Positions 6,819 through 26,314 are shown, numbered from the stretch's first letter. The stretch: DNA of 64,000 nucleotides from Bacteriovoracia bacterium (GCA_046570105.1 JBKHVI010000005.1:25294-89293); one strand, 5' to 3'. The notes: a model not told the origin generated them from the letters alone. Translations and numbers: made by a program.

Positions 6819-8141
6819 ATGTCGAATAACGTTTCAAAGCTTGAAGAACTCAAGAAGCGTCTGCTTTTCACCATTATCATGTTGGGTGTGTACCGAGTTG
6901 CGACTCAGGTTCCTACTCCAGGTGTAGATGGTGCAGCTCTCGCTTCGTTCTTTGGTGGAATGAAGGGCTCAGTGTTTGGTGTTTTCAATACCTTTAGCGG
7001 TGGTGCTCTCGAGCGCTTCTCGGTTTTGGCATTGGGAATCATGCCTTACATTACGTCATCGATTATTTTCAGCCTTCTTTCGTATTCAATTCCAGCTCTT
7101 TCTGAAATTCAGAAAGAACCAGATGGTCACAAAAAAATCAATCAATACACTCGCTACGCTACAGTCCTTCTCTGTATTTTTCAGGGTTATGGCTTAGCAG
7201 TCGGTCTTGAGAGTATTCGCAGTCCAAATAACGGCCTTCCAGTTGTTATTGATCCAGGTTACGCCTTCCGCTTCCTCACTGTTATCAGCTTGATGGCTGG
7301 TACAATGTTTGTGATGTGGTTGGGTGAGCAAATTACTGAGCGAGGTATTGGTAACGGTATCTCTCTTGTTATTTTTGCTGGTATCGCTGCTGGTATCCCA
7401 ACTGGTATGCGCGACACATTTAACCTTTTAACTAACGGTGAAATCACTGTGGTTGGCTTGTTGATTGTTCTCGCCATCATGTTGATCTCATTCTGGCTTA
7501 TTATCTATATTGAGCGTGCCTTCCGTAAGGTTCCAGTTCAGTACGCAAAACGTGTAGTGAATAACCGTGTCTTCGGCGGTCAATCAACTCACTTGCCGAT
7601 CAAGGTTAATATCTCAGGTGTAATGCCTCCGATTTTTGCCTCGGCTTTGCTTGGTTTCCCAACAACAGTTTCTCAGTTCATTCCAGCAGACAGCCCAGCG
7701 AAAGACTGGTTCAGCAAAATCGAGCAACTCTTGGCTCCAGGACGCATGCTTTATAACGTCGTCTTCATTGGGTTGATTGTATTCTTTGCTTATTTCTATG
7801 CTTCAATCCAGTTCAAGACTGGTGATATCTCTGAAAACTTGCGTAAGCATGGTGGATTTATCCCAGGAATTCGTCCAGGTGAGCAGACAGCAGATTTCCT
7901 TAATACAATCATTAGCCGCCTCACTCTTGTGGGTGCAATTTATGTGGCTTTGATCTGTCTTATGCCAGCCATTTTGTTTAACTATGCCAAAGTTCCTTTC
8001 TACTTCGGTGGAACGTCACTTTTGATTCTAGTAGGTGTCGCCATTGATACAATGGCTCAAGCCGAAAGCTTCATGATCTCCCAGCGTTTTGACTCTGCTT
8101 ACAAAGTTAGAGGCAAGTTCTCTGGCGCGAAGAGGTTCTAG
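6819..8141 (+). CDS. secY: Preprotein translocase subunit SecY
   Basis: LGIMPYITSSII, WLGEQITERGIGNGISL, FIPGIRPG, GGTSLLI. Confidence 0.98.
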   Translation: MSNNVSKLEELKKRLLFTIIMLGVYRVATQVPTPGVDGAALASFFGGMKGSVFGVFNTFSGGALERFSVLALGIMPYITSSIIFSLLSYSIPALSEIQKEPDGHKKINQYTRYATVLLCIFQGYGLAVGLESIRSPNNGLPVVIDPGYAFRFLTVISLMAGTMFVMWLGEQITERGIGNGISLVIFAGIAAGIPTGMRDTFNLLTNGEITVVGLLIVLAIMLISFWLIIYIERAFRKVPVQYAKRVVNNRVFGGQSTHLPIKVNISGVMPPIFASALLGFPTTVSQFIPADSPAKDWFSKIEQLLAPGRMLYNVVFIGLIVFFAYFYASIQFKTGDISENLRKHGGFIPGIRPGEQTADFLNTIISRLTLVGAIYVALICLMPAILFNYAKVPFYFGGTSLLILVGVAIDTMAQAESFMISQRFDSAYKVRGKFSGAKRF

Positions 8142-8142
8142 G

Positions 8143-8775
8143 ATGCAGCATCTCGTCTTCATCGGCGCTCCGGGCTCTGGAAAGGGCACTCAGGCAGGAA
8201 GATTGGTGACAGAGAAGGGTTGCAAGCACATTTCGACAGGCGATCTTCTTAGAGCTGAAATTGCAAAGGGAAGTGAACTCGGTCAGAAAGTTAAAGCGGT
8301 TTTGGATGCAGGTGCACTAGTTTCTGATGATCTTGTGATCAAATTGATTCATGCAAATGCTGATCTAGATAAGAATAGTTATATTTTTGATGGTTATCCT
8401 CGTAATTTAGCCCAGGCTCAAACCCTTGATCGAGAAGTCCTCAAGGGTCGTAAAAGCCTAGCGGTCTATTTCGAAATCGACCTCCCTAAGTTGATTCAGC
8501 GGCTCACAAACCGCCGAACCTGCAAAGACTGTGGTGCGATTTACAACTTGATTACCCAGGCCCCTCAAAAGGCCGGAGTGTGTGATCGTTGTAGCGGTAC
8601 CAATCTCGTACATCGAGATGACGACAAGGAAGAAGTCATCAAGAAGCGGATGGATGTATTCTCGCAGAATACCCAACCCGTCTTAGATTATTACAGAGCG
8701 GCACAACGTCTTATGACGGTGAACGCGGAAAATAGCATTGAGCAGCTTTACGAACAAATATCTCAGAAGCTCTAA
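8143..8775 (+). CDS. adk: Adenylate kinase with Zn-binding LID
   Basis: GAPGSGKGT P-loop, DGYPR, CKDC...CDRC; start moved to ATG 8143 just after secY stop. Confidence 0.96.
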   Translation: MQHLVFIGAPGSGKGTQAGRLVTEKGCKHISTGDLLRAEIAKGSELGQKVKAVLDAGALVSDDLVIKLIHANADLDKNSYIFDGYPRNLAQAQTLDREVLKGRKSLAVYFEIDLPKLIQRLTNRRTCKDCGAIYNLITQAPQKAGVCDRCSGTNLVHRDDDKEEVIKKRMDVFSQNTQPVLDYYRAAQRLMTVNAENSIEQLYEQISQKL

Positions 8776-8793
8776 CGCGAGGCCGGAAAGCGG

Positions 8794-8822
8794 TTGCCAA
8801 GGAGAAGGGGTTTAGTTATAAA
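8794..8822 (+). promoter_or_regulatory. sigma70-type promoter upstream of infA
   Basis: TTGCCA-N17-TATAAA in the adk-infA gap. Confidence 0.65.
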
Positions 8823-8845
8823 GTCGCTTACTTTTTAGTGGAAAA

Positions 8846-9073
8846 ATGATGTCTGAAGCGCAAGATACCATCGAAGTCGAGGGGCAGGTTCTCGAATTGC
8901 TCCCTAACACTAGGTTTAGGGTGAAACTGCCAAATGGACACGTTGTTTTGGCTCACATTAGTGGCAAGATGCGAATGAATTATATCAAGATCCTTCCCGG
9001 GGATAAAGTCGTTGTTGAAATCAGCAAATACGACTTGGACAAGGGACGGATTATTTTTAGAAGCAAAGGTTAA
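8846..9073 (+). CDS. infA: Translation initiation factor IF-1
   Basis: [21 protein letters not shown]. Confidence 0.98.
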
Positions 9074-9076
9074 TTT

Positions 9077-9193
9077 ATGAAAGTTAGATCATCAGTAAAA
9101 CCAATTTGTAAGGACTGCAAAGTAGTTAAGCGCAAAGGAACTTTGCGCGTAATTTGCAAAGGCAATCCTAAACACAAGCAACGTCAAGGTTAG
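9077..9193 (+). CDS. rpmJ: 50S ribosomal protein L36 (38 aa, not in ORF track)
   Basis: Manual translation [38 protein letters not shown]. Confidence 0.97.
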
Positions 9194-9204
9194 GAGACGA
9201 GAAC

Positions 9205-9585
9205 ATGGCACGTATTTTAGGCGTTGACCTTCCCCGTAATAAAGCGATGAAAATCGCGATCCGCGCTCTTTATGGCGTAGGTCCAAAAATCGGCGCAGAA
9301 GTGTTGGCGAAGGTCGGCATCGACCCAGAAAAAAGCTCTAATGATATCACAGAAGAAGAAACACAACAGATTCGTGCTGCTCTAGAAGGGCACTCGGTTG
9401 AAGGTGATCTTCGTCGTGAAGTTGGCTTGAACATTAAGCGCTTAAAAGACCTCGGTTGCTACCGTGGTATCCGTCACCGCAAAGGCTTGCCTGTTCGCGG
9501 TCAGCGTACCCACACAAACGCACGTACTCGTAAGGGACCTGCAGTGGCAATCGCTGGTAAGAAATCAATTAAGGCTATGAAGTAA
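9205..9585 (+). CDS. rpsM: 30S ribosomal protein S13
   Basis: [10 protein letters not shown]...[26 protein letters not shown]. Confidence 0.98.
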
Positions 9586-9597
9586 TAAGGCGGATAT

Positions 9598-10023: not shown

Positions 10024-10060
10024 TTCTAACGCGTAAAACATTTCTGTAAGGAGTCCGCTG

Positions 10061-11077
10061 ATGAGTAATTTTATGAGCAAAAACTGGACTGGCATGATTC
10101 GTCCAGGCGCACTTGAAGTTGATACTGATACTCTCAAGTCAAACTACGGTAAGTTCACTGCTAAGCCACTCGAGCGCGGCTACGGTCTTACTCTTGGTAA
10201 CTCTCTTCGCCGTGTACTTCTCTCTTCACTTCAGGGAGCAGGTATCGTTGCAGTGAAAATTGATGGTGTAGACCATGAGTTCGGCACAATCAACAACATC
10301 AAAGAAGAAGTTTCAGAAATCATTTTGAACCTTAAAGAAATCCGTTTCAAAATCACTGACAAGGAAGAGATGACTCTTGTCCTTGAGAAGAATTCAGAAG
10401 GCGCTGTTAAGGCCGCTGATATCTCTGAAAACGCTAACGTAAAAGTTCTCAATCCTGAGCACGTTATCTGTAACATTTCTTCAGGCGGCTCAATCCGCAT
10501 GGAGCTTAAAGTTGCTCGCGGCAAAGGCTATGTAACTGCACTTGATAACAAAGACTCGTTCGATCTTCCAGTTGGCTGGATCTACCTTGATACTTTGTTC
10601 TCACCTGTTACACGCGTAAATTACACTGTAACAAACGCACGTGTTGGTAAGCGTACTGACTACGATCGTTTGACTCTTGAAGTTTGGACAACATCTGGAA
10701 TTGATCCTTTGGATGCGATCGCAATTTCTGCGAAGATCCTTCGCGATCAATTGACTGTGTTCTTGAACTTTGAAGACAAGGACACTCCAACTGAAGTGAA
10801 GCCTGCTACTCAAGCTAGCGGTTCGGTAACGAACGACGCTCTCTTGAAGCCAGTTTCTGAGCTTGAATTGTCAGTTCGCTCAGCTAACTGCTTGCAGAAC
10901 GCTAATATCAAGTATATTTACGAGCTCGTTTCTAAGACTGAAGGCGAAATGCTTCGTACTAAGAACTTTGGCCGTAAGTCACTTAACGAAATTAAAGAAA
11001 TCCTTGCTTCAATGGGACTTGGCCTCGGCATGAAAGTCGACAACATCATGAAGCAAGTGGGCTCTCAAGCTGAGTAA
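10061..11077 (+). CDS. rpoA: RNA polymerase alpha subunit
   Basis: [42 protein letters not shown]. Confidence 0.98.
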
Positions 11078-13849: not shown

Positions 13850-13891
13850 GTCATGTGGGGTATAACTTTTGGACATTTCCAGGAGGACTCC

Positions 13892-15451
13892 ATGCTGACT
13901 AATTCTGAGCGTCGCGAACAGCTCGCCCAACTCAATGCCCAAGCTGAATTGGGTGGCGGTGTTGAACGTATTAACAAGCAGCACGAGCAAGGTAAGTATT
14001 CTGCACGTGAACGCTTGGAGAAATTGCTCGATCCGGGCAGCTTTATGGAGTTCGATAAATTTGTCGTTCATAAAAGCCGAGCTTTTGGCATCGAGAAAAC
14101 ACAATACCTAGGCGATGGTGTCATCACAGGAATTGGAACGATTAACGGACAGCAAGTAGCTTTGTTCAGCCAAGACTTCACATGCTGGGGCGGAGCACTT
14201 GGAGCCGCTTACGCAAAAAAAATCTGCAAGGTCATGGACTTCGCCCTTGAGCACCGAATTCCTATCATCGGCTTGAATGATTCGGGTGGTGCACGTATTC
14301 AAGAAGGCGTCGAATCACTGGCCGGTTATGCAGAAATTTTCTGGCGTAACGTCCAGGCATCAGGAGTGATTCCTCAAATTTCTCTTGTCTTGGGTCCTTG
14401 TGCAGGTGGCGCTGTTTATTCACCGGCCATGACTGATTTCATTTTCATGGTTGAGAAAACCTCTTACATGTTTGTCACTGGTCCTGATGTTATTAAGACC
14501 GTCACTCACGAAGAAGTGACGAAGGAAGCTTTGGGCGGGGCCAGTACGCACAATGAAAAATCAGGTGTCGCTCACTTTAAATGCACTGATGAAGACGATT
14601 GTTTTGAGCGCGTTCGCGAGCTCTTGAGTTATCTTCCATCTTCGAGCTCAGTGAAGCCAACAGCGGTTCTCACTGCCGATGCGGCCAATCGAACCAATGC
14701 AAAGCTGAAAGATTTTGTACCAGACAATTCACGCAAGCCTTATGACATGAAAGAGTTAGTGGTTGAAGTGGTTGATGATGGTCACTTCTTAGAAGTTCAT
14801 CGCGATTTTGCTAAAAATATTTTGTGTGGTTTTGCATCAGTAGGTGGAGTGAAGATCGGCATTATCGCTAACCAGCCGGCCGTGCTTGCTGGCGTTCTCG
14901 ATATCGACAGCTCAACAAAAGCGGCACGCTTCGTGCGCTTCTGTGATGCTTTCAATATTCCGGTAGTAACTTTTGTTGATGTGCCAGGATTCTTGCCAGG
15001 TACAGTGCAAGAGTACGGCGGTATTATCCGTCATGGCGCTAAACTTCTCTATGCCTACTGTGAAGCAACGGTTCCATTGATTACGGTCATTACTCGCAAA
15101 GCGTACGGTGGTGCCTATGATGTGATGGCTTCCAAGCACATTCGTTCGGACATTAACCTCGCTTACCCGACGGCCGAGATTGCTGTGATGGGTGCTGAAG
15201 GTGCGGTAAATATTATTTTCCGTAACGAGCTCGCAGGTTTAAAGGGCGAGGCTTTTGATAAGAAGAAAAAAGAGTTGGTTGAGAATTATGAAAATGAATT
15301 CGCCAATCCTTATCGTGCAGCGGAGTTAGGTTATTTGGATGAAATTATTTTCCCAGAGCAAACTCGTGCGCGCATCTATCAGTGTCTGAAAGCTCTGGAG
15401 CACAAGAAAGTTCGTGCACCAGAACGCAAACACGGCAACATTCCACTCTAG
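13892..15451 (+). CDS. pccB: Acyl-CoA (propionyl-CoA-type) carboxylase, carboxyltransferase beta subunit
   Basis: [30 protein letters not shown]-terminal [17 protein letters not shown] before ATG 13892. Confidence 0.9.
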
Positions 15452-15459
15452 AGGTCATC

Positions 15460-16884
15460 ATGTTAGGAAAACGTGTACTAATTGCAAATCGTGGTGAAAT
15501 TGCCATTCGTATTGCCAAAGCACTTAATGAGCTAGGGCTTGTGAGTGTCGGTGTATGGACTGATAACGAACCCGAGGCTGCTCACCTTGAATATTGCCAA
15601 GAGTGGGTTCATCTTGAGGGCAATTCAAATCGTGATACGTATCTTAATGTTCCAAAAATTTTGGAACTGATTAAAAAGTATAAAATCGATGCGGTTCATC
15701 CGGGGTATGGTTTTCTTTCTGAGAACGGAGAGTTTGCCAAAACACTCAAGGCCCAAGGTGTGATCTTCATCGGGCCTAATCCCGAAGCGATTGCCGCCAT
15801 GGGGGATAAAGCGATTTCCAAACAATGGGCGCAGAAGGCGGGAGTTCCCGTGGTGCCTGGTTCAACAGGTGAAGTGCCGACTGTCGAAGAAGCGATTAAG
15901 CTTTGTCAGACCATTGGATACCCCGTGCTTTTAAAAGCTGTTGCCGGTGGCGGTGGGAAGGGTATGCGTCCTTGTTATTCAGACGCCGATGTTAAAACCA
16001 ATTTTGAAGCTGTTCAGCGTGAAGCTCTTTCGAGTTTTGGGAATGCTGGGCTTCTCGTTGAGAAATACGTACAGAATCCGCACCACATTGAAGTGCAAAT
16101 CTTGGCCGATAAAAAAGGCAATGTTTATCACCTCTTTGAGCGTGAATGTTCAATTCAACGTCGTCATCAGAAAATTATTGAAGAAGCCCCATCACCTTTT
16201 ATTGGCGAAGATACAAAATTGCGCAAAGAAATTTGTGAAACGGCAGTCAAACTCGCGAAAGCTGTTGGCTACGATTCGGCCGGTACTGTTGAATTCATTA
16301 TGGGCGATGACCGCAAATTCTATTTCTTAGAAATGAATACGCGTATCCAGGTAGAGCATCCGATCACTGAAGAGATCACAGGGATTGATCTACTCGCCAA
16401 TATGGTGAAGTCGGCTTTCGGTCAGCCACTCGACTTTAAAACTCAGGACGATATTAAGCTGCATGGCCACGCCATTGAATGTCGAATTTGTGCGGAAGAT
16501 CCCGTAACCATGCTGCCAGCTCCTGGAAAGATAGCTGGCTTTGAAACGACTTTTCCGCAAGGGATTCGTTTTGATCATTGCCTCTATCCTAAATTTACCA
16601 TTACTCCCGACTTCGATCCGATGGTCGGGAAATTGATTGCTCGCGGTTATGATCGTGCGGTGGCGATTCGTAAGGTGCGCGCTGCTCTTGATGGTCTTTT
16701 GCTTGATGGTCTTAAAACGAATATTCCTCTCTTGAAAGTTATTCTTGATGAAGAGAGCTTTAAGAAAGGTGAATACACCACTCATTACATTGCAGGTGTT
16801 AAACCGCAAGAGCGAGTGGCGGTAACAGAAAAAGCGGAGAGTCTCTTAATGAGAGTGGCTTCGGTAGAAATGGGGCAGGTATAA
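15460..16884 (+). CDS. accC: Biotin carboxylase
   Basis: LIANRGEIA, HPGYGFLSEN, ECSIQRRHQK, FLEMNTRIQVEH; GAGG RBS before ATG 15460. Confidence 0.93.
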   Translation: MLGKRVLIANRGEIAIRIAKALNELGLVSVGVWTDNEPEAAHLEYCQEWVHLEGNSNRDTYLNVPKILELIKKYKIDAVHPGYGFLSENGEFAKTLKAQGVIFIGPNPEAIAAMGDKAISKQWAQKAGVPVVPGSTGEVPTVEEAIKLCQTIGYPVLLKAVAGGGGKGMRPCYSDADVKTNFEAVQREALSSFGNAGLLVEKYVQNPHHIEVQILADKKGNVYHLFERECSIQRRHQKIIEEAPSPFIGEDTKLRKEICETAVKLAKAVGYDSAGTVEFIMGDDRKFYFLEMNTRIQVEHPITEEITGIDLLANMVKSAFGQPLDFKTQDDIKLHGHAIECRICAEDPVTMLPAPGKIAGFETTFPQGIRFDHCLYPKFTITPDFDPMVGKLIARGYDRAVAIRKVRAALDGLLLDGLKTNIPLLKVILDEESFKKGEYTTHYIAGVKPQERVAVTEKAESLLMRVASVEMGQV

Positions 16885-16885
16885 G

Positions 16886-17365
16886 ATGCGCTATTATTTT
16901 GTGGATCAAGACCGTAATGACACAGTGGTAGACCTCAACAAGGTTGAAACGAACGGTTCCATATCAAAATTCATTTTTAGTGATAAAGCTTTGTATGCTC
17001 GTCGTTTGGCAGGAAAACTTTTTGGCTCTTGGGATCAGCAAAAATGGTTCAAGCTCACGCAATTATCCGCAGGTGAAACAGTGGTCTCAAATACTGTGAC
17101 CTACAAGATGTATCGCGGCTTCAAGCCTTCAGGATTGTTTAGCGGCGGAGCTGGTGCACTTGTTACCCAAATGCCCGGTAAAGTCGTGAAGCTATTTGTG
17201 AAGACAGGAGACACAGTCGAAAAAGGACAAACCATCCTCATCTTAGAGGCCATGAAAATGGAAAATGAGATTAAGGCAGGTGTTTCAGGGGTAGTAAAAA
17301 GCCTCCTGGTTCAACCCGGACAGGCACTAGAATCAGGCGTTTTGATGGCCGAAATCGAGGAATAA
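16886..17365 (+). CDS. Biotin carboxyl carrier protein
   Basis: MPGKVV...EAMKMENE biotinylation motif. Confidence 0.92.
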   Translation: MRYYFVDQDRNDTVVDLNKVETNGSISKFIFSDKALYARRLAGKLFGSWDQQKWFKLTQLSAGETVVSNTVTYKMYRGFKPSGLFSGGAGALVTQMPGKVVKLFVKTGDTVEKGQTILILEAMKMENEIKAGVSGVVKSLLVQPGQALESGVLMAEIEE

Positions 17366-17449
17366 CCCCTTGATTTAGGCAAGATTTGCCGCTTCTGGCC
17401 CTCTTTATGCGGCGGCGTGGTAAAATAGTAGTCAGGGGGCCCTGCTGCT

Positions 17450-18043
17450 ATGACCGAAACCATTCGCAAAATTGTCACCGCCACTGATCTCAAATCCTAC
17501 TTTTTTCAAGGTCTCAACGAACTGAATAATAAATCGCTCTGTCCTGTTCCACAGGAGACGATTTTTTATTCGAGTGTGGTGCTAGATCGCTTTGCTTTGA
17601 GTGCCACTTATTTTGAATTTAATGAAGGCCGCGTTCGCGAAAAGATTCTCGGCATGAAGTTACTCGAAGCCGGCACTCTTCCACTTGAATCACAAAAACG
17701 TACTTACCAAGAAGTAGGCGATACAGCGCTCATGCTCTGTGGTTATTTCTCTGAATCGCTCAATAAGAAAATCGTTGATCTCACTTACTACGCCCAATTA
17801 GGAAAGACGGCCTATGGCCGCTTAAACAATCATCTTCCTCGTCATCTTGATGTGCCGGATTTCTATCATGTGCTGGCCTCAAGCTTTGAAAATGTAACGA
17901 CTTTGATTAATCTTCTAGCTGCGAGTAATAAATTTGAAGACCCACGCCAGATCATCTTCAATAAGGCGATGAGTGATGAGGCTTCAGAGAATGAACTCTT
18001 GAGCGTAGGGATTCTAAAACCTCATCAAAACAAAGCTTCTTAG
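17450..18043 (+). CDS. Hypothetical cytoplasmic protein
   Basis: 197-aa ORF with a VGDTALMLCGYFSESL...YYAQLGKTAY block typical of a widespread uncharacterised family; no function assignable. Confidence 0.7.
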   Translation: MTETIRKIVTATDLKSYFFQGLNELNNKSLCPVPQETIFYSSVVLDRFALSATYFEFNEGRVREKILGMKLLEAGTLPLESQKRTYQEVGDTALMLCGYFSESLNKKIVDLTYYAQLGKTAYGRLNNHLPRHLDVPDFYHVLASSFENVTTLINLLAASNKFEDPRQIIFNKAMSDEASENELLSVGILKPHQNKAS

Positions 18044-18753
18044 CCATTCGTCGTTGCGAGCTCGATGAGCTTTTTTTCAATCTCCTGACATTGCGTATCG
18101 TCTAGTATTCTGTCGTTCGGGACAGAGAGTTCGCGTGTGAGATCGTCCACGAGTGCTTTTGATATCGCGTGGATTTCTGACAAATTTTTAAGAGAAGACA
18201 TCAAAGCTAATTCAAGTTTGTTCAGCTCTTGCAAATTATTCTCGTATGGGGCCCATTTACCAAAAGAGCGATAATAGGGCCGACGAATATTTAACCAATG
18301 TTGGTGCAGATTGTTATGCTGGATATTTAAACGAGTTATTTCTTTTTCTCTTTCTTGATTGAGATCGATATAGATTCGTTTAGCTAAATTCTCTTCGGTC
18401 GCCGAGAGTTGTAAAATCATGGCATCTGAATCCGCAATTTTCTTATCTTTTATCTTTTGAACATTCTCTTTCTGTATTTCAATATCTTCCTTCATTTGCT
18501 TAAGGCGACTATATTCTCCATAAAGAGCCCGATTATTTCTGAAAAAATCGTGTGACTCAAATTTAAGATCAAGGATTCTTCGAGTAAGAGATACAATTTT
18601 GTGGATAAAAGTCTCGACCTCTCCCTCAATACTGCCCACATCGACTGTCATAACTCTTTCGCAGGCAGGAGGGAGTGACCCTTCAAACTTTTTTTTGAAT
18701 GTTTCAGCTTGAGCGAATGGAATTAAAAAACAAAAAACTATAATAAATTTCAT
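18040..18753 (-). CDS. Exported coiled-coil protein (237 aa), similar to the stalk of the 639-aa protein
   Basis: Signal peptide MKFIIVFCFLIPFAQA from ATG 18753; heptad pattern; NRALYGEY and WAPY blocks shared with 20402-22321. Confidence 0.75.
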   Translation of the reverse strand: MKFIIVFCFLIPFAQAETFKKKFEGSLPPACERVMTVDVGSIEGEVETFIHKIVSLTRRILDLKFESHDFFRNNRALYGEYSRLKQMKEDIEIQKENVQKIKDKKIADSDAMILQLSATEENLAKRIYIDLNQEREKEITRLNIQHNNLHQHWLNIRRPYYRSFGKWAPYENNLQELNKLELALMSSLKNLSEIHAISKALVDDLTRELSVPNDRILDDTQCQEIEKKLIELATTNG

Positions 18754-18760
18754 AAAAATC

Positions 18761-19069
18761 CTATTGGTTGAGATCAGGGTTTTTGTCCACAACTTGCTGT
18801 GTGTATGCCGCAATATCGTAATGTCCTGCTTTGCATTCAGCGAAGTTCAAATTTTCAAGTCGCTTGAAGGCATCAGAAGTGTTTGCGGGAGGATCTTTCA
18901 GCCAGCCGAGATGGCGCTCAAGACAGGCCAGCTTCTGGGGTCTGTCAGCATTCACAACCTGCCCGTCAGTATTTTCTTCTACGGAGCTTGAATTTGAGCC
19001 GCCTGATGATGAAGTACTTTTTCCGCAAGAAGTGCTTAGAATCAAAATTATTAAAATAAGCAGCTTCAT
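18761..19069 (-). CDS. Small lipoprotein with Ser-rich linker
   Basis: MKLLILIILILSTS-C lipobox-like; SSSGGSNSSS linker; two further Cys. Confidence 0.75.
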   Translation of the reverse strand: MKLLILIILILSTSCGKSTSSSGGSNSSSVEENTDGQVVNADRPQKLACLERHLGWLKDPPANTSDAFKRLENLNFAECKAGHYDIAAYTQQVVDKNPDLNQ

Positions 19070-19071
19070 AG

Positions 19072-20031
19072 TTACTCCTGAGTCGTCGCTAGGACTGTTT
19101 CAGAAACATCTAGTGTTGTTGCGGGATGAACTTTTTTTACGAAGTCTTCAAAGGTTTTAAAACGATTTAGATAAAGGGAGAATTCATCGTTCTCTATGTA
19201 GTAAGTGAAAAACCGATCAAAGATTTGCTCCACTGAGTAAATATTTTTGAGATTAAATCGTTCCATTTTGTCATTTAGCAAAAGAGATGCGCTAACGACA
19301 GAGTGAAGTTTATTTTTCCATTCCTTGTTATCGAATTCACGATCCCAAGTATTCATAACCGCCAGATAGTAGTTATAGATATGATAAGATTCATTAATGT
19401 CTTGGGGTTTCTCTAGGCGAGTAGAAACAAAGAGAGATGCACTGATGCTGCTTTGTTTATGTAGTAGGGCACAGGTTTGAGCGCGATTCGTAGTGTAAAC
19501 AAACTTCCCATCGTTTCGCAGATTTCCGCCCATGTCGTAATAATTGATAAACTCAGTAAAAATTGACTTTTCTGTTGGAGCTAAATTCAATCGAAGAGAT
19601 GTAATATCCAGAGTAGGATTAATTAAGTTGATATTACTCGCTGGAATGCCTAATTCATCAACAAAATCCTCTGCGGTATTATTGGCTGGTTTGGCCTGCA
19701 CTAGAAACTTGCCATAGGCGTCTCCGAAACGGTACTCCATGAGACCTGTCATGGTGACGTGAGCACCTTTGTAGGTTTCCACACAAGTCGCTGATGTAAA
19801 GTTATTATCTTTGCAATTATCTCTTTTAGCTGTTTCAAGAAAATGCTTAGCGATCCAAGCCAGATGTTCACAGTCATAGCCTTGAACTTTATTAACATGC
19901 TTCAAGTCTAGAGCAACAGTTCTTGGAATAACGACAGCTTTATCGCCTAGACGATGAATGAAGAAATTATCGTTTGCAAAGCTTTTAGAACAGAAGACAA
20001 GGCTGAAAAAGCCTAAAAATAAAAGTTTCAT
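19072..20031 (-). CDS. Exported hypothetical protein (319 aa)
   Basis: Signal peptide ending SFA; tightly coupled to neighbours; motif spacing shared with the 639-aa protein. Confidence 0.75.
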   Translation of the reverse strand: MKLLFLGFFSLVFCSKSFANDNFFIHRLGDKAVVIPRTVALDLKHVNKVQGYDCEHLAWIAKHFLETAKRDNCKDNNFTSATCVETYKGAHVTMTGLMEYRFGDAYGKFLVQAKPANNTAEDFVDELGIPASNINLINPTLDITSLRLNLAPTEKSIFTEFINYYDMGGNLRNDGKFVYTTNRAQTCALLHKQSSISASLFVSTRLEKPQDINESYHIYNYYLAVMNTWDREFDNKEWKNKLHSVVSASLLLNDKMERFNLKNIYSVEQIFDRFFTYYIENDEFSLYLNRFKTFEDFVKKVHPATTLDVSETVLATTQE

Positions 20032-20396
20032 TAGATATCTCCCAAGGATTTCAATTGTTGAATGGAATTTTTCTGATATTGAGCAAACGCTGCGGCAGCT
20101 ACTTTTGAGGCTTTAGCGTAGTTTTGCTCATCTTCATTTGTTAATTCGCCAGCAAGTGCTTTGCGATTGTATTCCTCCGTCACCAATTCAAGTTCTTCTA
20201 GAGCTTCAGTGAAACGAATTTGCTCTTCAGATCGTTGAGCTGGCTCAACTAGTTCTGGACTCTTCTCTTTAGATAAAGAGGCTGAGGGGGTGTTCCCCTC
20301 AGCAATCTGACTCTTAAGCGCTGGCGCTTTGGTTGACCAACCCAACCAAAGTGCTGCTATCGCTAAGATCATGAACATTAAAAGTGTCTTTTTCAT
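20031..20396 (-). CDS. Membrane-anchored/exported helical protein (121 aa)
   Basis: N-terminal hydrophobic segment, linker, helical C-terminus; 1-nt stop/start overlap with next gene. Confidence 0.7.
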   Translation of the reverse strand: MKKTLLMFMILAIAALWLGWSTKAPALKSQIAEGNTPSASLSKEKSPELVEPAQRSEEQIRFTEALEELELVTEEYNRKALAGELTNEDEQNYAKASKVAAAAFAQYQKNSIQQLKSLGDI

Positions 20397-20401
20397 AAGG
20401 C

Positions 20402-22321
20402 CTACTTACAGGTTTGATTGTTAAGGCAAACAGTCATTTCAACTTTTGCTGATCCATTTCCAATTAAATAAGAGGAGAGCTTAAGATCCTTTTTGATCTT
20501 TCCTGTCATTGATTGGCGATGAGATGACGAACCGGTATGGCGTGAGCCGACGAGATCATCGATCGACTTGAGAACAACTCCTCCGAACTCACACATTTTA
20601 TTTTTTCCACAGAGATTCATGACTCCTGCACCGACTTGAGAGAAGAAGCGACTGTCTTCGCCAAGCTCAGTATGTGGAACTTCTGTAATAGTGTATTCCT
20701 TGGCATAAGACATAATGAACATGTGGAAGATGTCTTGATAAAGTGCTTTCTCAACGGCTTCATTAATTAAGGCCGACTCTTCTGGCGTTGACCCCACTGG
20801 ACGCTTATCTAACTCACACTTGAGCCCCATGTTGTTAGAGTAATCATGACGTGTGTGATCCCATGAAGTTGTACGGCGTCTCCAGAATCCACCTGTTTTC
20901 TTCTTACCCGAATCTCTTACGTAGTTAGATGACTTGCTGACATCAAGCTCACATCGACCTTCAATCGGCTCTGCTTTTTGGTAATAGTTATACGCCAATG
21001 AGACATTTTGCGCATAAATAAGACGATCGCTTTTTAATTCAAAAACGGGATAATTAACTTTAGTTTTAACTGTCTCGCCGCTTGCATTTGTAAAAGTGAT
21101 TTCGCGATCAACATAGGTCGGTTCACCACAATAAGAAGCAATCGAAATGGGCATTTCAAAGTCCTGGGCAGCTCCGGCATTATTGTTAAACTTCTTAACT
21201 AAAAACTTTAGGTTTTCTGTTTTTCCATCTTCACTTTCCAACTTGGCTGGCATTTCAAGATATTGATCTTCAACGCCCAGAGAAATGCTGTTTTTGTCAT
21301 CAACTTCATAAGAGGCGAGGCGATATGTTCTATTGTGATCACTGCGAACTTCGCTATCTAAACTAATAACTGATGGATTCATTTTCACGTTGAATACATC
21401 GAGTTGACGGACATCGTAGTCAAGGCCAGCTTCTCTAATTCTCTCACGTAAAATTGATAATTGATCGTTTGAAGCTAAGCTGTAACCAGCTGTTGCTTTA
21501 CCAACCACTTTTTTACCCAGTGTATAGATATAATTCTTGCTGGTTTCCAAGTGATCTTTAGCTTGTTTTTGATAACGCTCCATCGAACCCATTAGATCAT
21601 TTTCAAACTCTCTAATGTAGGCGAGTTCATCACGGAAAGGGGCCCAACCACGACTCGCTTGTGAAAAGCGAGTAGATGCTTCTGTACGATACTGAATGTT
21701 TTGGGCAATTTTTGCACGTAGATCTGAGAAGATTGGTAAATAGGTTTCTCTGATTGCCGCACGATCCGCCTCGGTTAAAACCATCGCCATTTCAGACATG
21801 TAGTTAGCATGAGTTGATTTTAAGTTTTCTTCTAGAGAAGCACCCTCTGCTTTAATGCTTTCGAGTTCTCCATAAGCTGCCTGGTACTCATTATAGAGTT
21901 CGCGGTTATCTTCACGAAGTTGGTTTGCTCGTAGACGGAGGTCAGTGATTTTTTGCTTAAGCACAGATGAGCGTGCTTCAAAAGCTATCGTTGCTTCAAA
22001 TAATGGCGAATAGTATTGACCGCTCGATAGAATTCTCTGTGTTTCTTCTTGCGATGATGGATATTTCAAGAGACCTGTGCGCAAGTTATGTAAATCCGTG
22101 CATGAAATGCCGGCAGAGATTTGAGTGAACTTTCCTGAAACCTTAATATCTGATGGCATGATATAGATAAGCTTAGGATTAAGATCATCTCCCATAATAT
22201 TGTTTATCCCGACCATTGAGACCTGAGAGGTAAGTCCAGTGATGCTGACTTTAGGGTCGGGCATGGCGAAGACAGGCATCGCCATAATTCCTGCAAGTGT
22301 TGTAAGCGCTAATCTCTTCAT
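20402..22321 (-). CDS. Large exported protein (639 aa), coiled-coil insertion in a Cys-containing beta-rich core; function unknown
   Basis: Signal peptide ending VFA; GGAG RBS; coiled coil about aa 115-265; 8 Cys. Confidence 0.8.
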   Translation of the reverse strand: MKRLALTTLAGIMAMPVFAMPDPKVSITGLTSQVSMVGINNIMGDDLNPKLIYIMPSDIKVSGKFTQISAGISCTDLHNLRTGLLKYPSSQEETQRILSSGQYYSPLFEATIAFEARSSVLKQKITDLRLRANQLREDNRELYNEYQAAYGELESIKAEGASLEENLKSTHANYMSEMAMVLTEADRAAIRETYLPIFSDLRAKIAQNIQYRTEASTRFSQASRGWAPFRDELAYIREFENDLMGSMERYQKQAKDHLETSKNYIYTLGKKVVGKATAGYSLASNDQLSILRERIREAGLDYDVRQLDVFNVKMNPSVISLDSEVRSDHNRTYRLASYEVDDKNSISLGVEDQYLEMPAKLESEDGKTENLKFLVKKFNNNAGAAQDFEMPISIASYCGEPTYVDREITFTNASGETVKTKVNYPVFELKSDRLIYAQNVSLAYNYYQKAEPIEGRCELDVSKSSNYVRDSGKKKTGGFWRRRTTSWDHTRHDYSNNMGLKCELDKRPVGSTPEESALINEAVEKALYQDIFHMFIMSYAKEYTITEVPHTELGEDSRFFSQVGAGVMNLCGKNKMCEFGGVVLKSIDDLVGSRHTGSSSHRQSMTGKIKKDLKLSSYLIGNGSAKVEMTVCLNNQTCK

Positions 22322-22466
22322 TTGTTATCTCCAATTAATAGTTATGCCGATGTGCCATCTCACGCATTTCCGGATAAGCGTGGTGCTAATGATCAAATCG
22401 ATTGCGGCGAGTCTTATGTGATCTTTGTTGGGGTTGGAATGCTCAAACTGCGTTGCTGAAGAAAAT

Positions 22467-22485
22467 GTGACAGGTTCTGTGTCAC
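22467..22485. promoter_or_regulatory. Palindromic operator candidate 1
   Basis: GTGACA-ggttctg-TGTCAC (GTGAC-N9-GTCAC). Confidence 0.55.
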
Positions 22486-22530
22486 TTATATTCGATTTGA
22501 GGAGCTAAATAGCTTGAAACATTTACCTAA

Positions 22531-22549
22531 GTGACTTGTTACAAGTCAG
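22531..22549. promoter_or_regulatory. Palindromic operator candidate 2
   Basis: G-TGACTTGT-t-ACAAGTCA-G (GTGAC-N9-GTCAG); same half-site spacing as copy 1. Confidence 0.55.
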
Positions 22550-22572
22550 GAACAGGGATAGAAAGCCAACTT

Positions 22573-23370
22573 ATGCAACAAGTGGTAGCCGAAAATATCG
22601 TGGCGGGGGCGATTCAGAAGGTCATTAATGACCATCTGGAAGCTTATCCACAGGTCAGTCTTCGCGGTATTGCTGCTCGTGAAGATGGTATTGGAAGAGA
22701 ATACATTCGTCGTCTTGCCGCGGGCGAAATTCCTGATCATAAGATAGATCGCGAGAAAGTGCTGCTGATTCTGATGACACTTTCTAAAAAGAAGAATCTA
22801 AAAGACCTTGGTGCATTTTATGGTGACCCAATCACGAGCTGGATCAAGTCTTCAGTTATTGTGAATTGGGAAAATGATACAGAGCTTGCCGAGCGCGAAC
22901 TCGAAGCGATGATGCTGCAGGATGAAGATGACTGTATCGCATTCTTAATGGCTCATACAGATGCAGGTGCTACTGTTGATGAAGTAGTCAAAGTTGTGGG
23001 TGAGACTGGAAAAAGATCGTTGCCTGCTCTTGAACAACGAAGTTTTCTGGTAAAGGATGCTGGGAGATATCGTGGAAAAGAAAACAACTTTTTAACTCTC
23101 TCATTGCAAGCGACTCAAAAAATCATTCAAACACTTGTTGGTTATTATAAGCCGTCGCATTTCGGTAAGAATCGAAATTATATTATGCTTATGACTGGTT
23201 CATTAAATGCAGAAGGCATCAAGGCCCAGCAGGAACTTTACAGAAAGTTTCACCAAGATATCAGACAAATATATGAGAATCCTTCCCACTCAGGTGACAT
23301 CCATAGCTTTTCGGTTTCTTGCATGGACTCATTTACTATGTTAGAAGAGGCGAATCATGAACTTCATTAA
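22573..23370 (+). CDS. HTH transcriptional regulator, TIGR02147/DUF4423-like
   Basis: N-terminal HTH-like SLRGIAAREDGIGREYIRRLAAGE, central winged-helix-like segment, C-terminal LMTGSLNAEG...FHQDIRQI; family call by recognition; start ATG 22573 preferred. Confidence 0.6.
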   Translation: MQQVVAENIVAGAIQKVINDHLEAYPQVSLRGIAAREDGIGREYIRRLAAGEIPDHKIDREKVLLILMTLSKKKNLKDLGAFYGDPITSWIKSSVIVNWENDTELAERELEAMMLQDEDDCIAFLMAHTDAGATVDEVVKVVGETGKRSLPALEQRSFLVKDAGRYRGKENNFLTLSLQATQKIIQTLVGYYKPSHFGKNRNYIMLMTGSLNAEGIKAQQELYRKFHQDIRQIYENPSHSGDIHSFSVSCMDSFTMLEEANHELH

Positions 23371-23755
23371 ATTAGTTTATATACTTACCCTTACGCTTTC
23401 ATTCCAGGTCTTTGGATCATCTGTGGCTCCGTTTTATCTTGTAACCAAATTGGTTACTGTAGAGGGCGAGGTGATTGCGAACAACCAAGTAAAGAAACTG
23501 GTTGTTGAAAAAGCTGGTTTTTCAGACGTTGAAGTAACCTCTGTTGAATTAGTTGATGGAAGAGTGCTGGTTCAAAATGAGATTCAAACAATTGAGTTTA
23601 CAGTTGCACCTAGTCTCAATCGTCCAAATATTAGAAGAACAATTCAAGACGGTAAGTTCGATGAATTGCTACGTCAAAACGTACGCTTAGGGCCACCTAA
23701 CTTTGATTTTTCAACAGAGCTTAGAGATAGTGGAATAAGTTCGGGCGGGGGCTGA
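23357..23755 (+). CDS. Small exported protein with Gly-rich C-terminus
   Basis: Signal peptide; GAGG RBS; 14-nt overlap with regulator; ends DSGISSGGG. Confidence 0.65.
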   Translation: MNFIKLVYILTLTLSFQVFGSSVAPFYLVTKLVTVEGEVIANNQVKKLVVEKAGFSDVEVTSVELVDGRVLVQNEIQTIEFTVAPSLNRPNIRRTIQDGKFDELLRQNVRLGPPNFDFSTELRDSGISSGGG

Positions 23756-23758
23756 GAC

Positions 23759-26314
23759 TCAGATAGGCCCAGCCGTTACAATATTCCATCCATCCTTCAT
23801 AAACATCTGTAAGAACGCTTGGAAATCTTCATATTTTGCCTGACGAATTGTTTCCTGCGAGTTGTGCTGGAAATCAAGTCCATGTCCATGCAGCGCTGGC
23901 ACTGAGTAGAACTGAGCGTAATCTTCGTTCGTTTGCACAGAAAGCTGCTGTTGCCCGTCGAGATTAGTTTTTACGCGCTCAAATTCATCGCGCGTGAGAC
24001 CTGATACTGACATGCGCGTGAGAATATCCAGAATAGCTTTTTCAGCACGCTCTTTCTTATCAGCTCCTGCACCGATATAAATTCCCCAAGCACCCGCTTC
24101 AAGAGCTGTGACATGCACAGGCTGAACGGCGTAGCAGAGGCCTTGGCGATCGCGTACTTCAACAAATAATTCCGAACCTTGGCCTGAGAGGTGAGCTGTC
24201 ACCATCTTCAAATAAAGATCTTCAAGGTCAGTCATCTTGTAGGCCGGCTTTCCAATTACGATTTGAACTTGTTCACGCTTCATCGGAATATCAAGACGCT
24301 GCTTGGTTTTTGGCTTCAAAGAATTTTTACGAGGCTTAGGCCCCTTTCTTCCTTTAAGAGCAACAAAAGCTTTTTGTAATTTAAGAACAACCGTTTCAAG
24401 ATCGAGATCTCCACAGTAAGTGAAGACCATTTCTTCTTTAGCTAAGTGCTGACGGTGAAGAGTTTGCAAAGCTGCTGGGGTCATTTTCTTAAGACTTTCA
24501 GGTGTACCAGAAGCATCAAGCGCGTACGGATGCGCATTGAAAATCATCTTGTACCAATTCTTGAAGGCCTGCTTAACTGGATCTTCTTTTTGGTTATCAA
24601 GCATTCGTAGAATAACTTGTCTCTCATGCTTTAAGAATTTCTCTGGAAGAGTTGGTTTTAATAGTGAGCCAGCAAAATGACCTAACAAACTATCAAAGTT
24701 CGCACTTTGACCATGAAGTGTGAGTCCATAAGCATTTTTTCCAGCAAAGCCAGAAAGTGCAGCGGAACTTTCTTCAAGGTCTTGTTTAAGTTTTTCGTAA
24801 GGCATGCCCTTATACCCATAGGTAATAAGACGTGAAAGCATACCGTGGCGACCACAATCTTTTTCTGATTCAGTCGTGAGTCCACCTTTTACGTAGTGAT
24901 GAAGAACGAAAGTGGGGGTCATCTTATTTTGACGATGAATAAGCTTAACCCCAGGCATAAGTTCAATCATCGAAACGGCAGCATCAAAAGTAGATGTCAC
25001 ACGCTTGAGTGGTTTTTCTTTTTCAAAAGATTTTTTTGCAACAGCTTGTACTTTCTTTTGGAAATTCGTTAATTGCGTCTGAATAGGAGCGATTTTAGTT
25101 CCCTCTGGAACCTGCATAGTTAGATGCATGGCACGTGAAAGAATGCGAGGAAGTGCTACCGCTACCTGGCGAGCAGGAGTTTCTTTAATGCGCTTGATGA
25201 AAGCTTCTTCACAGAAGATATCACCATTTTGAGCGAAGCCATGTCCGAGTGAGAAAGCGAAAGCTTCGATGCTTTCTTTTTCATAGACTTTGCTGGCGAT
25301 GTATTGGTTTTTAATTTTATCAACTTCATCTTCGCGGATATCGCCCGAAAGAGCTTTCGCCAAAGTTTGCTCAAAGACTTTTAAAACCTTTGCAAGATTT
25401 TCTGTCGGCATACTGCACTTGAGCATATGGCAGCCCTTGTGGGCGAAATACATAGTAGAACCTGCTATGCCATTACAAAGAGTCGTTTGTGCGACAAGAG
25501 CTTGATAGAGACGAGAAGTTTCACCGTGGGCCAGACAGTTAATCGCTAGATCTTCTGCCGTAGCAGATGGATCCACATAATCTGGAGCTGCCAGGGCCAG
25601 TGTGAGTGTCGCTTGGCGAATAGGTTTTTCATGGACGCTAACTTTAGAAGTCGTGGGCAAGGTAAATTCACCAAAATGAGATTGTTCACCGGCCGGAAGT
25701 CTAAAAGATGAAATGAGTTTTTCGAGATGAGTGCGCTCACTTAGGTCACCTGCAACAACCAGCATGGCATTTTGCATATTGTAAAAGCGTTGGCGGAATC
25801 CTTTCAGTTGAGCAGGTGAGAATCCCTTGATGGTATCTTCACGGCCCAAGATCGGATGCTTGTAGCCACCCTCGAAACAGTTTTCTTGCAAGCGCATGAA
25901 ATGAAACTGAGAAGGATTATCAAGGGCACGACGGTATTCTTCAAAGACCACATCACGTTCAGAAGGGAAATCCTCATCATTGAACATTGGATTGGCGACC
26001 ATGTCCAAGAGGATAGTGAGCGCATTGCTGGTTTTGCGAGATGGAGCATTGATGTAGTAACAAGTGTAATCAAAACTAGTGAAGGCGTTGATTTCTCCAC
26101 CAAATGTTTCTACTTCTTGTGCAATCGCAGCTCCCGGGCGAGTGGGCGTTCCCTTAAAGAACATATGTTCTAAAAAGTGAGCAATGCCCTGATTGTCTTT
26201 TTCTTCAAGGGCCGAGCCGGCGCGAAACCACATCTGAACAGTTGCGGCAGTTGAACCGGGAGAATGGATAAAAAGGGTTTTAAGGTCACCGAGGCGGGTT
26301 TCTTCGACGTGCAT
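23759..26314 (-). CDS. M16-family (pitrilysin-like) zinc peptidase, two halves fused
   Basis: Inverted zincin HFLEH, NAFTSFDYT, second half with VRDRQGLCY; GGAG RBS before ATG 26314. Confidence 0.92.
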   Translation of the reverse strand: MHVEETRLGDLKTLFIHSPGSTAATVQMWFRAGSALEEKDNQGIAHFLEHMFFKGTPTRPGAAIAQEVETFGGEINAFTSFDYTCYYINAPSRKTSNALTILLDMVANPMFNDEDFPSERDVVFEEYRRALDNPSQFHFMRLQENCFEGGYKHPILGREDTIKGFSPAQLKGFRQRFYNMQNAMLVVAGDLSERTHLEKLISSFRLPAGEQSHFGEFTLPTTSKVSVHEKPIRQATLTLALAAPDYVDPSATAEDLAINCLAHGETSRLYQALVAQTTLCNGIAGSTMYFAHKGCHMLKCSMPTENLAKVLKVFEQTLAKALSGDIREDEVDKIKNQYIASKVYEKESIEAFAFSLGHGFAQNGDIFCEEAFIKRIKETPARQVAVALPRILSRAMHLTMQVPEGTKIAPIQTQLTNFQKKVQAVAKKSFEKEKPLKRVTSTFDAAVSMIELMPGVKLIHRQNKMTPTFVLHHYVKGGLTTESEKDCGRHGMLSRLITYGYKGMPYEKLKQDLEESSAALSGFAGKNAYGLTLHGQSANFDSLLGHFAGSLLKPTLPEKFLKHERQVILRMLDNQKEDPVKQAFKNWYKMIFNAHPYALDASGTPESLKKMTPAALQTLHRQHLAKEEMVFTYCGDLDLETVVLKLQKAFVALKGRKGPKPRKNSLKPKTKQRLDIPMKREQVQIVIGKPAYKMTDLEDLYLKMVTAHLSGQGSELFVEVRDRQGLCYAVQPVHVTALEAGAWGIYIGAGADKKERAEKAILDILTRMSVSGLTRDEFERVKTNLDGQQQLSVQTNEDYAQFYSVPALHGHGLDFQHNSQETIRQAKYEDFQAFLQMFMKDGWNIVTAGPI

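Follow-up and report, generated by a model that had tools for sequence, protein, structure and literature searches.

An inserted seven-gene module of a Bacteriovoracia bacterium encodes a conserved set of probably exported proteins with a recurring helical hairpin

Many genes of the predatory Bdellovibrionota have no known function, and the parts with which these bacteria contact and breach the envelope of their prey are only partly known. Within a 64,000-nucleotide (nt) stretch from a Bacteriovoracia bacterium (GCA_046570105.1 JBKHVI010000005.1:25294-89293), referred to below as the window, positions 18040-23755 hold a 5.7-kb block of seven genes that has been inserted between two core genes. 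Five of the seven, for which A to E serve as shorthand, lie on the minus strand and keep their order across genera; the other two, encoding proteins of 279 and 132 amino acids (aa), diverge from them. On sequence comparison the product of E is a solidly supported paralogue of a coiled-coil hairpin within the product of A, and none of the five appears to belong to a described family. An earlier sequence-only reading of this DNA had proposed an undescribed multi-component exported system. The conserved order, a probable anchor, a probable lipoprotein and the partial paralogy of E all speak for that proposal, while the second paralogy on which it drew, between C and A, was not borne out. The features concerned are as follows.

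20402-22321, minus strand: gene A, 639 aa, open reading frame (ORF) call
20031-20396, minus strand: gene B, 121 aa, ORF call
19072-20031, minus strand: gene C, 319 aa, ORF call
18761-19069, minus strand: gene D, 102 aa, ORF call
18040-18753, minus strand: gene E, 237 aa from the ATG at 18753 (longest ORF 257 aa)
21515-22006, minus strand: hairpin insertion within A (A residues 106-269)
18166-18597, minus strand: hairpin copy within E (E residues 53-196)
22322-22530, no strand: divergent intergenic region between A and the 279-aa ORF
22531-23370, plus strand: 279-aa ORF (265 aa if the Met at 22573 is used)
23357-23755, plus strand: 132-aa ORF, sharing 14 nt with the 279-aa gene

As first described, the five minus-strand genes (18040-22321) are tightly coupled, with gaps of 7 nt or less: 5, -1, 2 and 7 nt for A-B, B-C, C-D and D-E, the start of C overlapping the stop of B by 1 nt. 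A purine-rich stretch precedes every start. The block is set just as closely between the genes on either side: E and a convergent 197-aa gene overlap at their stops, and 3 nt separate the end of the 132-aa gene from the stop of an M16-type peptidase gene. The local AT-richness also noted earlier was confirmed, as the block has a GC content of 40.6% against 44.6% elsewhere in the window, and 0/188 segments of equal size are as low.

Comparison with other genomes of the genus revealed the empty site. The two flanking genes are convergent and directly abutting in four of the five congeners examined (G071, G102, G006 and G151), the fifth (G163) having a different neighbour within the 3.2 kb read, and neither A, E nor the 279-aa gene was found at any of the five congener loci. 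In the window both flanking genes retain normal C-termini, and a search of the insertion borders for mobility genes and for direct or inverted repeats flanking the block revealed none. Only one other genome of the genus (1/10), G169, has the module; its seven genes are identical in kind and have other neighbours than in the window. The empty site in congeners, the other location in G169 and the low GC content together establish that the seven-gene module is an insertion, and they fit an accessory, mobile nature. Contigs from other sequencing runs bridge both junctions, one of 9,879 nt over 17081-25000 with 37 differences, one of 4,742 nt over 19977-24718 and one of 345 nt over 17879-18223, and the arrangement is thus not an assembly artefact. 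The five-gene operon and the divergent pair would have been acquired together by horizontal transfer. Upstream, at 13853-17365, lie core genes that by eye resemble a carboxyltransferase, a biotin carboxylase and a biotin carrier protein (an acyl-CoA carboxylase set); the same set also flanks the empty site in the congeners.

Related loci were sought with an 11-row alignment of A, and co-occurrence was counted in a sample of 201 genomes of the family. By their record titles, the relatives are metagenome-assembled genomes of Bacteriovoracaceae, Halobacteriovoraceae and Bdellovibrionales. The gene-neighbourhood survey that the sequence-only reading had put forward as a check gave a uniform result: the order A-B-C-D-E is kept in all ten loci that are long enough (the window, L015-L020, L061, L062 and L067), across which the A proteins share 31-53% identity, and three loci cut by contig ends (L008, L021 and L023) show the same order as far as their sequence extends. 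Gene A is present in 10/201 genomes and 8/69 genera. Strong matches to C occur in nine of the 201 genomes, each on the contig that holds A, with a second copy on another contig of G156 (C9); four weaker C matches sit elsewhere. Matches to E were obtained in eight A-holding genomes and as a stand-alone E-like gene in G164, and the A-holders lacking C or E are those cut by contig ends. A hidden Markov model (HMM) of B, built from positional orthologues, finds loci outside its training set (L061, 6.9e-28; L023, 6.1e-16; L062, 9.1e-9; L067, 2.4e-8), and that of D matches at L061, L062 and L067 and also at L070, L072 and L073. The 132-aa gene travels with the module, and the 279-aa gene stands beside the operon in the closest relatives only. 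Among 1.84 billion representative proteins, a profile of A retrieved 109 at E <=0.001 and 59 at <=1e-30; going by size and by the region aligned, some 25 of the 109 hits are E-type proteins (227-327 aa) in which the match is confined to the hairpin region.

From this operon structure we infer that the products of A-E form a hetero-oligomer. They might instead share their regulation and their export but act independently, as a small secretome island with no complex, given that the accessory genes vary between distant A clusters. Strict order and overlapping or nearly overlapping genes across genera at such low A identity argue against this, as does the fact that A, C, D and the anchor stay together even where they are reordered, and we consider it distinctly unlikely.

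Two of the related loci deserve separate mention. At L067, A is split into ORFs of 497 and 110 aa (7728-9586) and C is only 198 aa long (10049-10645), which may reflect a decaying copy or sequencing errors. L071 (G164:C2:229000-245000) holds the stand-alone E-like hairpin protein (292 aa; 3.8e-19 with the E5 profile), whose gene is divergent from six exported-protein genes with a D-like lipoprotein at the end of the run. A 526-aa ORF there (G164:C2:232580-233281, 527-aa frame) resembles the C-terminal part of the profile of the A' proteins described below (E 4e-30, positions 302-547) and had escaped the local A HMMs.

The relationship between E and A is the best supported of those proposed within the operon. 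The sequence-only reading had matched the 237-aa product by eye to the coiled-coil insertion of the 639-aa protein, and this proved correct: BLASTP aligns E with the A hairpin at E 2e-5, and the alignments of the two families match with a probability of 98.9% in hhalign (E 1.7e-17, 138 columns, A 118-255 on E 53-196). The motifs N-R-x-x-Y-x-x-Y and W-A-P-F/Y are common to both. In A, the hairpin is a pair of antiparallel arms, about 75 and 86 residues long, and carries the shared motifs in mid-arm. These comparisons make a solid case that E is a true paralogue of the A hairpin, an exported stand-alone copy of it. The companion claim, that the 319-aa product C matches the beta-core of A, is not supported, the best BLASTP E value being 3.7 and the hhalign probabilities 0.5% for C against A, 2.3% against a profile of ~550-aa A proteins and 0.3% against a profile of the A forms that lack the hairpin. 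The hairpin is also absent from A relatives of 413-435 aa. Inserted in A, free in E and absent from the short forms, it is thus, on these alignments, a separable module.

All five products were said to bear export signals, and this was upheld by simple sequence rules. The N-termini of A, C and E, and that of the 132-aa ORF, resemble signal peptides; the 279-aa protein is cytoplasmic. B has a single hydrophobic segment at its N-terminus (Kyte-Doolittle 1.87, residues 1-23), with no second one, and the remainder is acidic and probably helical; it is probably a bitopic inner-membrane anchor. D has Cys 15 behind a hydrophobic run and is a probable small lipoprotein: the lipobox is a loose S-T-S-C in the window copy and canonical in four of six aligned orthologues, and two Cys are conserved besides that of lipid attachment. 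Behind the signal peptide, the N-terminus of mature A is conserved (A-x-A / L-P-D-P); there follow an N-terminal beta part, the hairpin, a domain rich in beta structure and a C-terminal region of high conservation. In the window's subfamily (11-sequence alignment) A has eight invariant Cys, and P21, D45, P56, C74, C398, C457, C502, C571 and C577 are invariant in a 44-sequence alignment of the family. C has four Cys that are invariant across orthologues, and E has one conserved Cys near either end. Even-numbered sets of conserved Cys, together with export signals, fit with products that are disulfide-bonded in an oxidising compartment.

Our tentative interpretation is that A-E form an envelope-resident, disulfide-bonded and conditionally expressed complex anchored at both membranes and possibly spanning the periplasm. 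An inner-membrane anchor, a lipoprotein and hairpins of 11 nm suggest an assembly resident in the envelope. The products would be exported by Sec and assemble in the cell envelope, with B as inner-membrane anchor, D as outer-membrane lipoprotein and A, C and E periplasmic or at the surface. The hairpin, roughly 11 nm long and present once in A and once as free E, would act as a spacer or docking arm, after the model of periplasmic adaptor proteins and of the coiled-coil regulators of wall hydrolases, and its conserved mid-arm motif would be a contact site.

The impression that no named family is represented was confirmed by profile searches. Searches of Pfam, NCBIfam, PHROGs and PADLOC did not rise above noise for A-E or for the 279- and 132-aa proteins. 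When 44 aligned A relatives were searched against Pfam, only scattered coiled-coil families appeared, each in at most four of the 44, and PDB sequences gave coiled-coil noise (best E 0.055) or no match for the profiles of A, C and E. No paper was found under the identifiers of six family members. On this evidence no component of A-E belongs to a described family; 'new' here refers to that lack of family matches and not to a demonstrated new mechanism or working principle. The sequence-only reading had named three outcomes that would speak against it, namely non-significant profile alignments among the three proteins, homologues occurring singly without conserved neighbours, and a match to a known enzyme family. 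One of the two paralogies is significant, neighbours are conserved and no enzyme family was matched, so that none of these was found in full.

Structural comparison directs attention to the hairpin. The AlphaFold2 (AF2) model of whole A has a mean predicted local distance difference test (pLDDT) of 65.4 and a predicted template modelling score (pTM) of 0.43, the confident parts being a small N-terminal beta part and the helical hairpin (helices 106-138, 140-180 and 184-269, pLDDT ~85-95), from which the length given above was calculated by our own arithmetic. Foldseek with full-length A places the adaptor EmrA (4tko) first in the PDB (E 2.6e-4, probability 1.00), and the VIA matches of A include Cg1735 (Z 11.5), SteB-RipA (10.4), HlyD (10.4), MacA (9.9) and Spr0693 (9.5). 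The ESM Atlas models of C and A were poor (pLDDT 0.36 and 0.50), their structural rows all at TM <=0.33, and gave no usable features. A complex prediction for A (20-639, 44 rows) with E (17-237, 21 rows) scored 0.00 and speaks neither for nor against an interaction.

These matches could mean that A oligomerises through its hairpins into a periplasmic-adaptor-like tube, in the manner of HlyD, EmrA and MacA, coupled to an outer-membrane channel encoded elsewhere and with E as an extra or capping hairpin. As in those proteins, A is predicted to be an exported envelope protein in which a long antiparallel helical hairpin sits between beta segments, the position it occupies in the lipoyl domains of adaptors. 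However, the superposition on EmrA is poor (TM 0.13/0.24, root-mean-square deviation 21.9), no VIA match extends beyond the hairpin (residues 108-260) or reaches the level of roughly Z 13 that is given as meaningful for helical arrangements, and the C-terminal 375 residues of A are unmatched. Unlike the adaptors, A has a signal that is cleavable rather than an anchor and no HlyD- or lipoyl-type Pfam match in itself or in 44 relatives, and no ABC, RND or MFS transporter or outer-membrane factor is encoded in the window or in the related loci read. We regard such a tube as quite improbable.

The same hairpin matches raise the idea of a coiled-coil regulator or carrier of a wall hydrolase, after the manner of EnvC, PcsB or RipA, with B gripping the hairpin and the C-terminal half of A acting on peptidoglycan. 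The best VIA match is indeed the coiled-coil peptidoglycan hydrolase Cg1735, followed by SteB-RipA, and the RipA N-terminal domain is in the Foldseek list of A with a probability of 1.00; like EnvC, PcsB, RipA and Cg1735, A would be exported and would carry a globular part behind an N-terminal helical hairpin. These matches too are confined to the hairpin and fall within the range of helical noise, whereas no LytM, NlpC/P60, CHAP or other hydrolase domain was detected in A by Pfam or fold search, nor by Pfam in its 44 relatives. There are no adjacent FtsEX-like genes, and the conserved Cys are paired, as for disulfides. This makes a hydrolase factor very improbable. As far as the models go, resemblance of the hairpin is the sole basis of both this idea and that of an adaptor.

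The remainder of A was modelled separately. A model of residues 265-639 (61-row alignment; pLDDT 76.5, pTM 0.58) is beta-rich with very long strands, up to 27 residues. Foldseek found no PDB match at E <=0.001 (best E 2.8e-3, with a probability of 0.13), the highest probability among the ten best rows by E-value being 0.15; none of 48,161 chains reached Z 5 in VIA-align (best 4.9), and no BFVD fold matched at E <=0.001. If the assembly proves to be envelope-spanning, the non-helical half of A probably represents a new fold. Within this model, four of the 50 best VIA rows for the sub-range 187-352 are C-terminal domains of the TonB family (Z 3.3-4.1, 51-54 residues aligned), a recurrent match that is far too weak to name the fold.

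A pore-forming or membrane-attack device had been offered as an example of what the operon might encode. On that account A-E would be a secreted multi-component toxin directed at prey or competitors, with A and E co-assembling in the target membrane like the bi- or tripartite alpha-pore-forming toxins. A set of exported components in which two share a paralogous helical module recalls the ClyA-type multi-component toxins, such as YaxAB, AhlABC, Hbl and Nhe. The patchy, island-like distribution in a predatory lineage would suit a toxin, as would the long strands modelled in the C-terminal half of A, and the Foldseek list of A includes chains of AhlC (E 0.022-0.032) and of Tc toxins, though only at E 0.02-0.04 and amid numerous generic coiled coils. 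However, toxin models in Pfam (HlyE, Hbl etc.) gave no match at E up to 1 for A-E and none in the 44 A relatives, and no fold match rises above generic helical hairpins. The beta-rich half matched neither aerolysin, MACPF/CDC nor any other pore-former fold by Foldseek or VIA, in a query model whose pTM is only 0.58. Apart from their signal peptides, A, C and E have no 19-residue segment at or above 1.6 on the Kyte-Doolittle scale, and so no hydrophobic membrane-insertion segment of the kind found in the head or tongue of ClyA-type toxins. An inner-membrane anchor and a lipoprotein would be unexpected in the operon of a released toxin, and no secretion system is encoded nearby among the ORFs of the window. 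The toxin idea thus has no specific support, and we think it improbable; were the system a toxin, it would found a new toxin family.

Two further identities were tried and rejected. DUF4139/DUF4140 (PF13598) gave no Pfam match, and hhalign probabilities were at most 1.4% for A (profile A6), the ~550-aa A' proteins (profile A7) and the short A forms, against a PF13598 profile composed of three proteins of the phylum only; the DUF4139 rows seen in structure searches were sub-threshold (Atlas TM 0.19, BFVD E 0.22). Phage spanins were considered for B and D, with no PHROGs match at E up to 0.1 supporting them and no adjacent phage genes in the window. The sole PHROGs row is a family of unknown function, at 0.067, on the signal region of D.

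Association with a dedicated regulator is a feature of many related loci. A sigma-54 activator with a receiver domain, confirmed by Pfam, lies divergently upstream of A at L015, L017, L020, L023 and L067, and another of the same kind, likewise confirmed, lies 4.5 kb downstream at L066. The motif TGG-N9-TGC occurs 52-80 nt upstream of A in 7/14 loci, where 0.34 would be expected from shuffles. The window, L019 and L061 have neither motif nor activator and carry the 279/132-aa pair instead, along with a conserved word resembling TGGCAC that has no -12 element. The 279-aa protein had been taken for a helix-turn-helix (HTH) regulator, which could not be verified: it has no Pfam or PDB sequence match, only 15 bits to NCBIfam MbpA against a cut-off of 90, and just six relatives in a collection of 5.8 billion proteins, so that the assignment amounts to a guess. 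In the proposed scheme expression would be conditional, governed in many relatives by a sigma-54 promoter and a dedicated NtrC-type response regulator, in whose place the window's genus would use the 279/132-aa pair. The window has TGGCAC at 22352-22357 (minus strand), ~30 nt before the A start and with no GC element at -12 spacing. The word TGGCAC/TGGCCA followed by ATCGG, about 30-45 nt before the A start, is conserved in the window and L019; it may be what is left of a -24 box, or else a site at which the 279-aa protein acts. No listed module holder is on record as RNA; one run labelled as cDNA, probably DNA, contains two identical contigs within gene A (20965-21268 and 21550-21787), which were not counted as expression.

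Beyond the closest relatives, A belongs to a wider family. Its profile A6 aligns with A7 in hhalign at 99.9% (E 2e-31, 531 columns), and C' aligns with C at 98.8% (E 1e-16). The order A'-C'-D'-anchor is found at L070, L072 and L073, with a slightly different order at L042 (Bdellovibrio sp. qaytius, CIK05_08910), so that A-like, C-like, small lipoprotein and anchor genes recur, reordered, in these four clusters. Matches to A7 at E <=1e-10 occur in 50/401 sampled genomes of the phylum, 35/203 genera and at least 10 families. Many are proteins of 413-435 aa that align with A7 over 1-114 and ~220-545, the hairpin between these missing; they match A7 at 100% in hhalign (E 1.7e-43). Such short forms are present in Bdellovibrio sp. 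KM01, ZAP7, HCB185ZH and HCB209 and in Bacteriovorax stolpii (DOM21_10835). The relatives in cultured strains, annotated only as hypothetical proteins, make genetics possible. They are true, though distant, homologues of the window's A and, like it, are encoded next to a small lipoprotein and further exported proteins, but their clusters differ from that of the window in gene order and partners, and no E-type subunit was detected in them. So far the A family has been seen, in these searches, in Bdellovibrionota only. What is defined here is thus a recurrent mobile gene set with a core of A-like and C-like proteins, a small lipoprotein and an anchor, together with a modular hairpin.

Several points weigh against an envelope complex of A-E. 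The compartments of the five products were assigned by simple sequence rules, a Sec signal is in itself compatible with onward secretion, and the D lipobox is non-canonical in the window. No sigma-54-type promoter precedes A in the window. The clusters of 6-Cys A proteins at L043-L045 have accessory genes of a comparable sort, for exported proteins, a lipoprotein and an anchor of ~150 aa, that are missed by the B-E profiles, and the partner set is therefore not universal. A full-length member of the A family is encoded by Oligoflexus tunisiensis, which is not known to be an obligate predator, so that distribution does not imply a role in predation. The compartment, the physical assembly, the role of the hairpin and any link to predation are inferences. 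A fuller version of the envelope-complex reading would be an envelope machine specific to Bdellovibrionota, built on a new-fold A with the hairpin both inserted in A and kept free as E, spanning the periplasm, responding to signals from prey or environment and acting in prey contact or invasion; we hold this to be unlikely. Should an envelope-spanning device nonetheless be confirmed, it would add a hitherto undescribed type of assembly, probably with a new fold.

The wider family also yielded some minor observations. The short-A clusters L084, L085 and L086 (Bdellovibrio sp. HCB209, KM01 and Bacteriovorax stolpii) comprise four to seven exported proteins. L086 includes a second protein, of 506 aa, matching the N-terminal part of the A' profile only, and a 458-aa gene just downstream that is putatively response-regulator-like. 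At L081 (G222:C1:2065615-2067207), in a complete 2.7-Mb genome, the A'-type gene contains one in-frame TAG. Beside the cluster of Bdellovibrio sp. qaytius, at L042 12535-13626, lies a gene whose exported product, of 364 aa, matches Fic/DOC (E 2.5e-6, 28.7 bits against a cut-off of 24).

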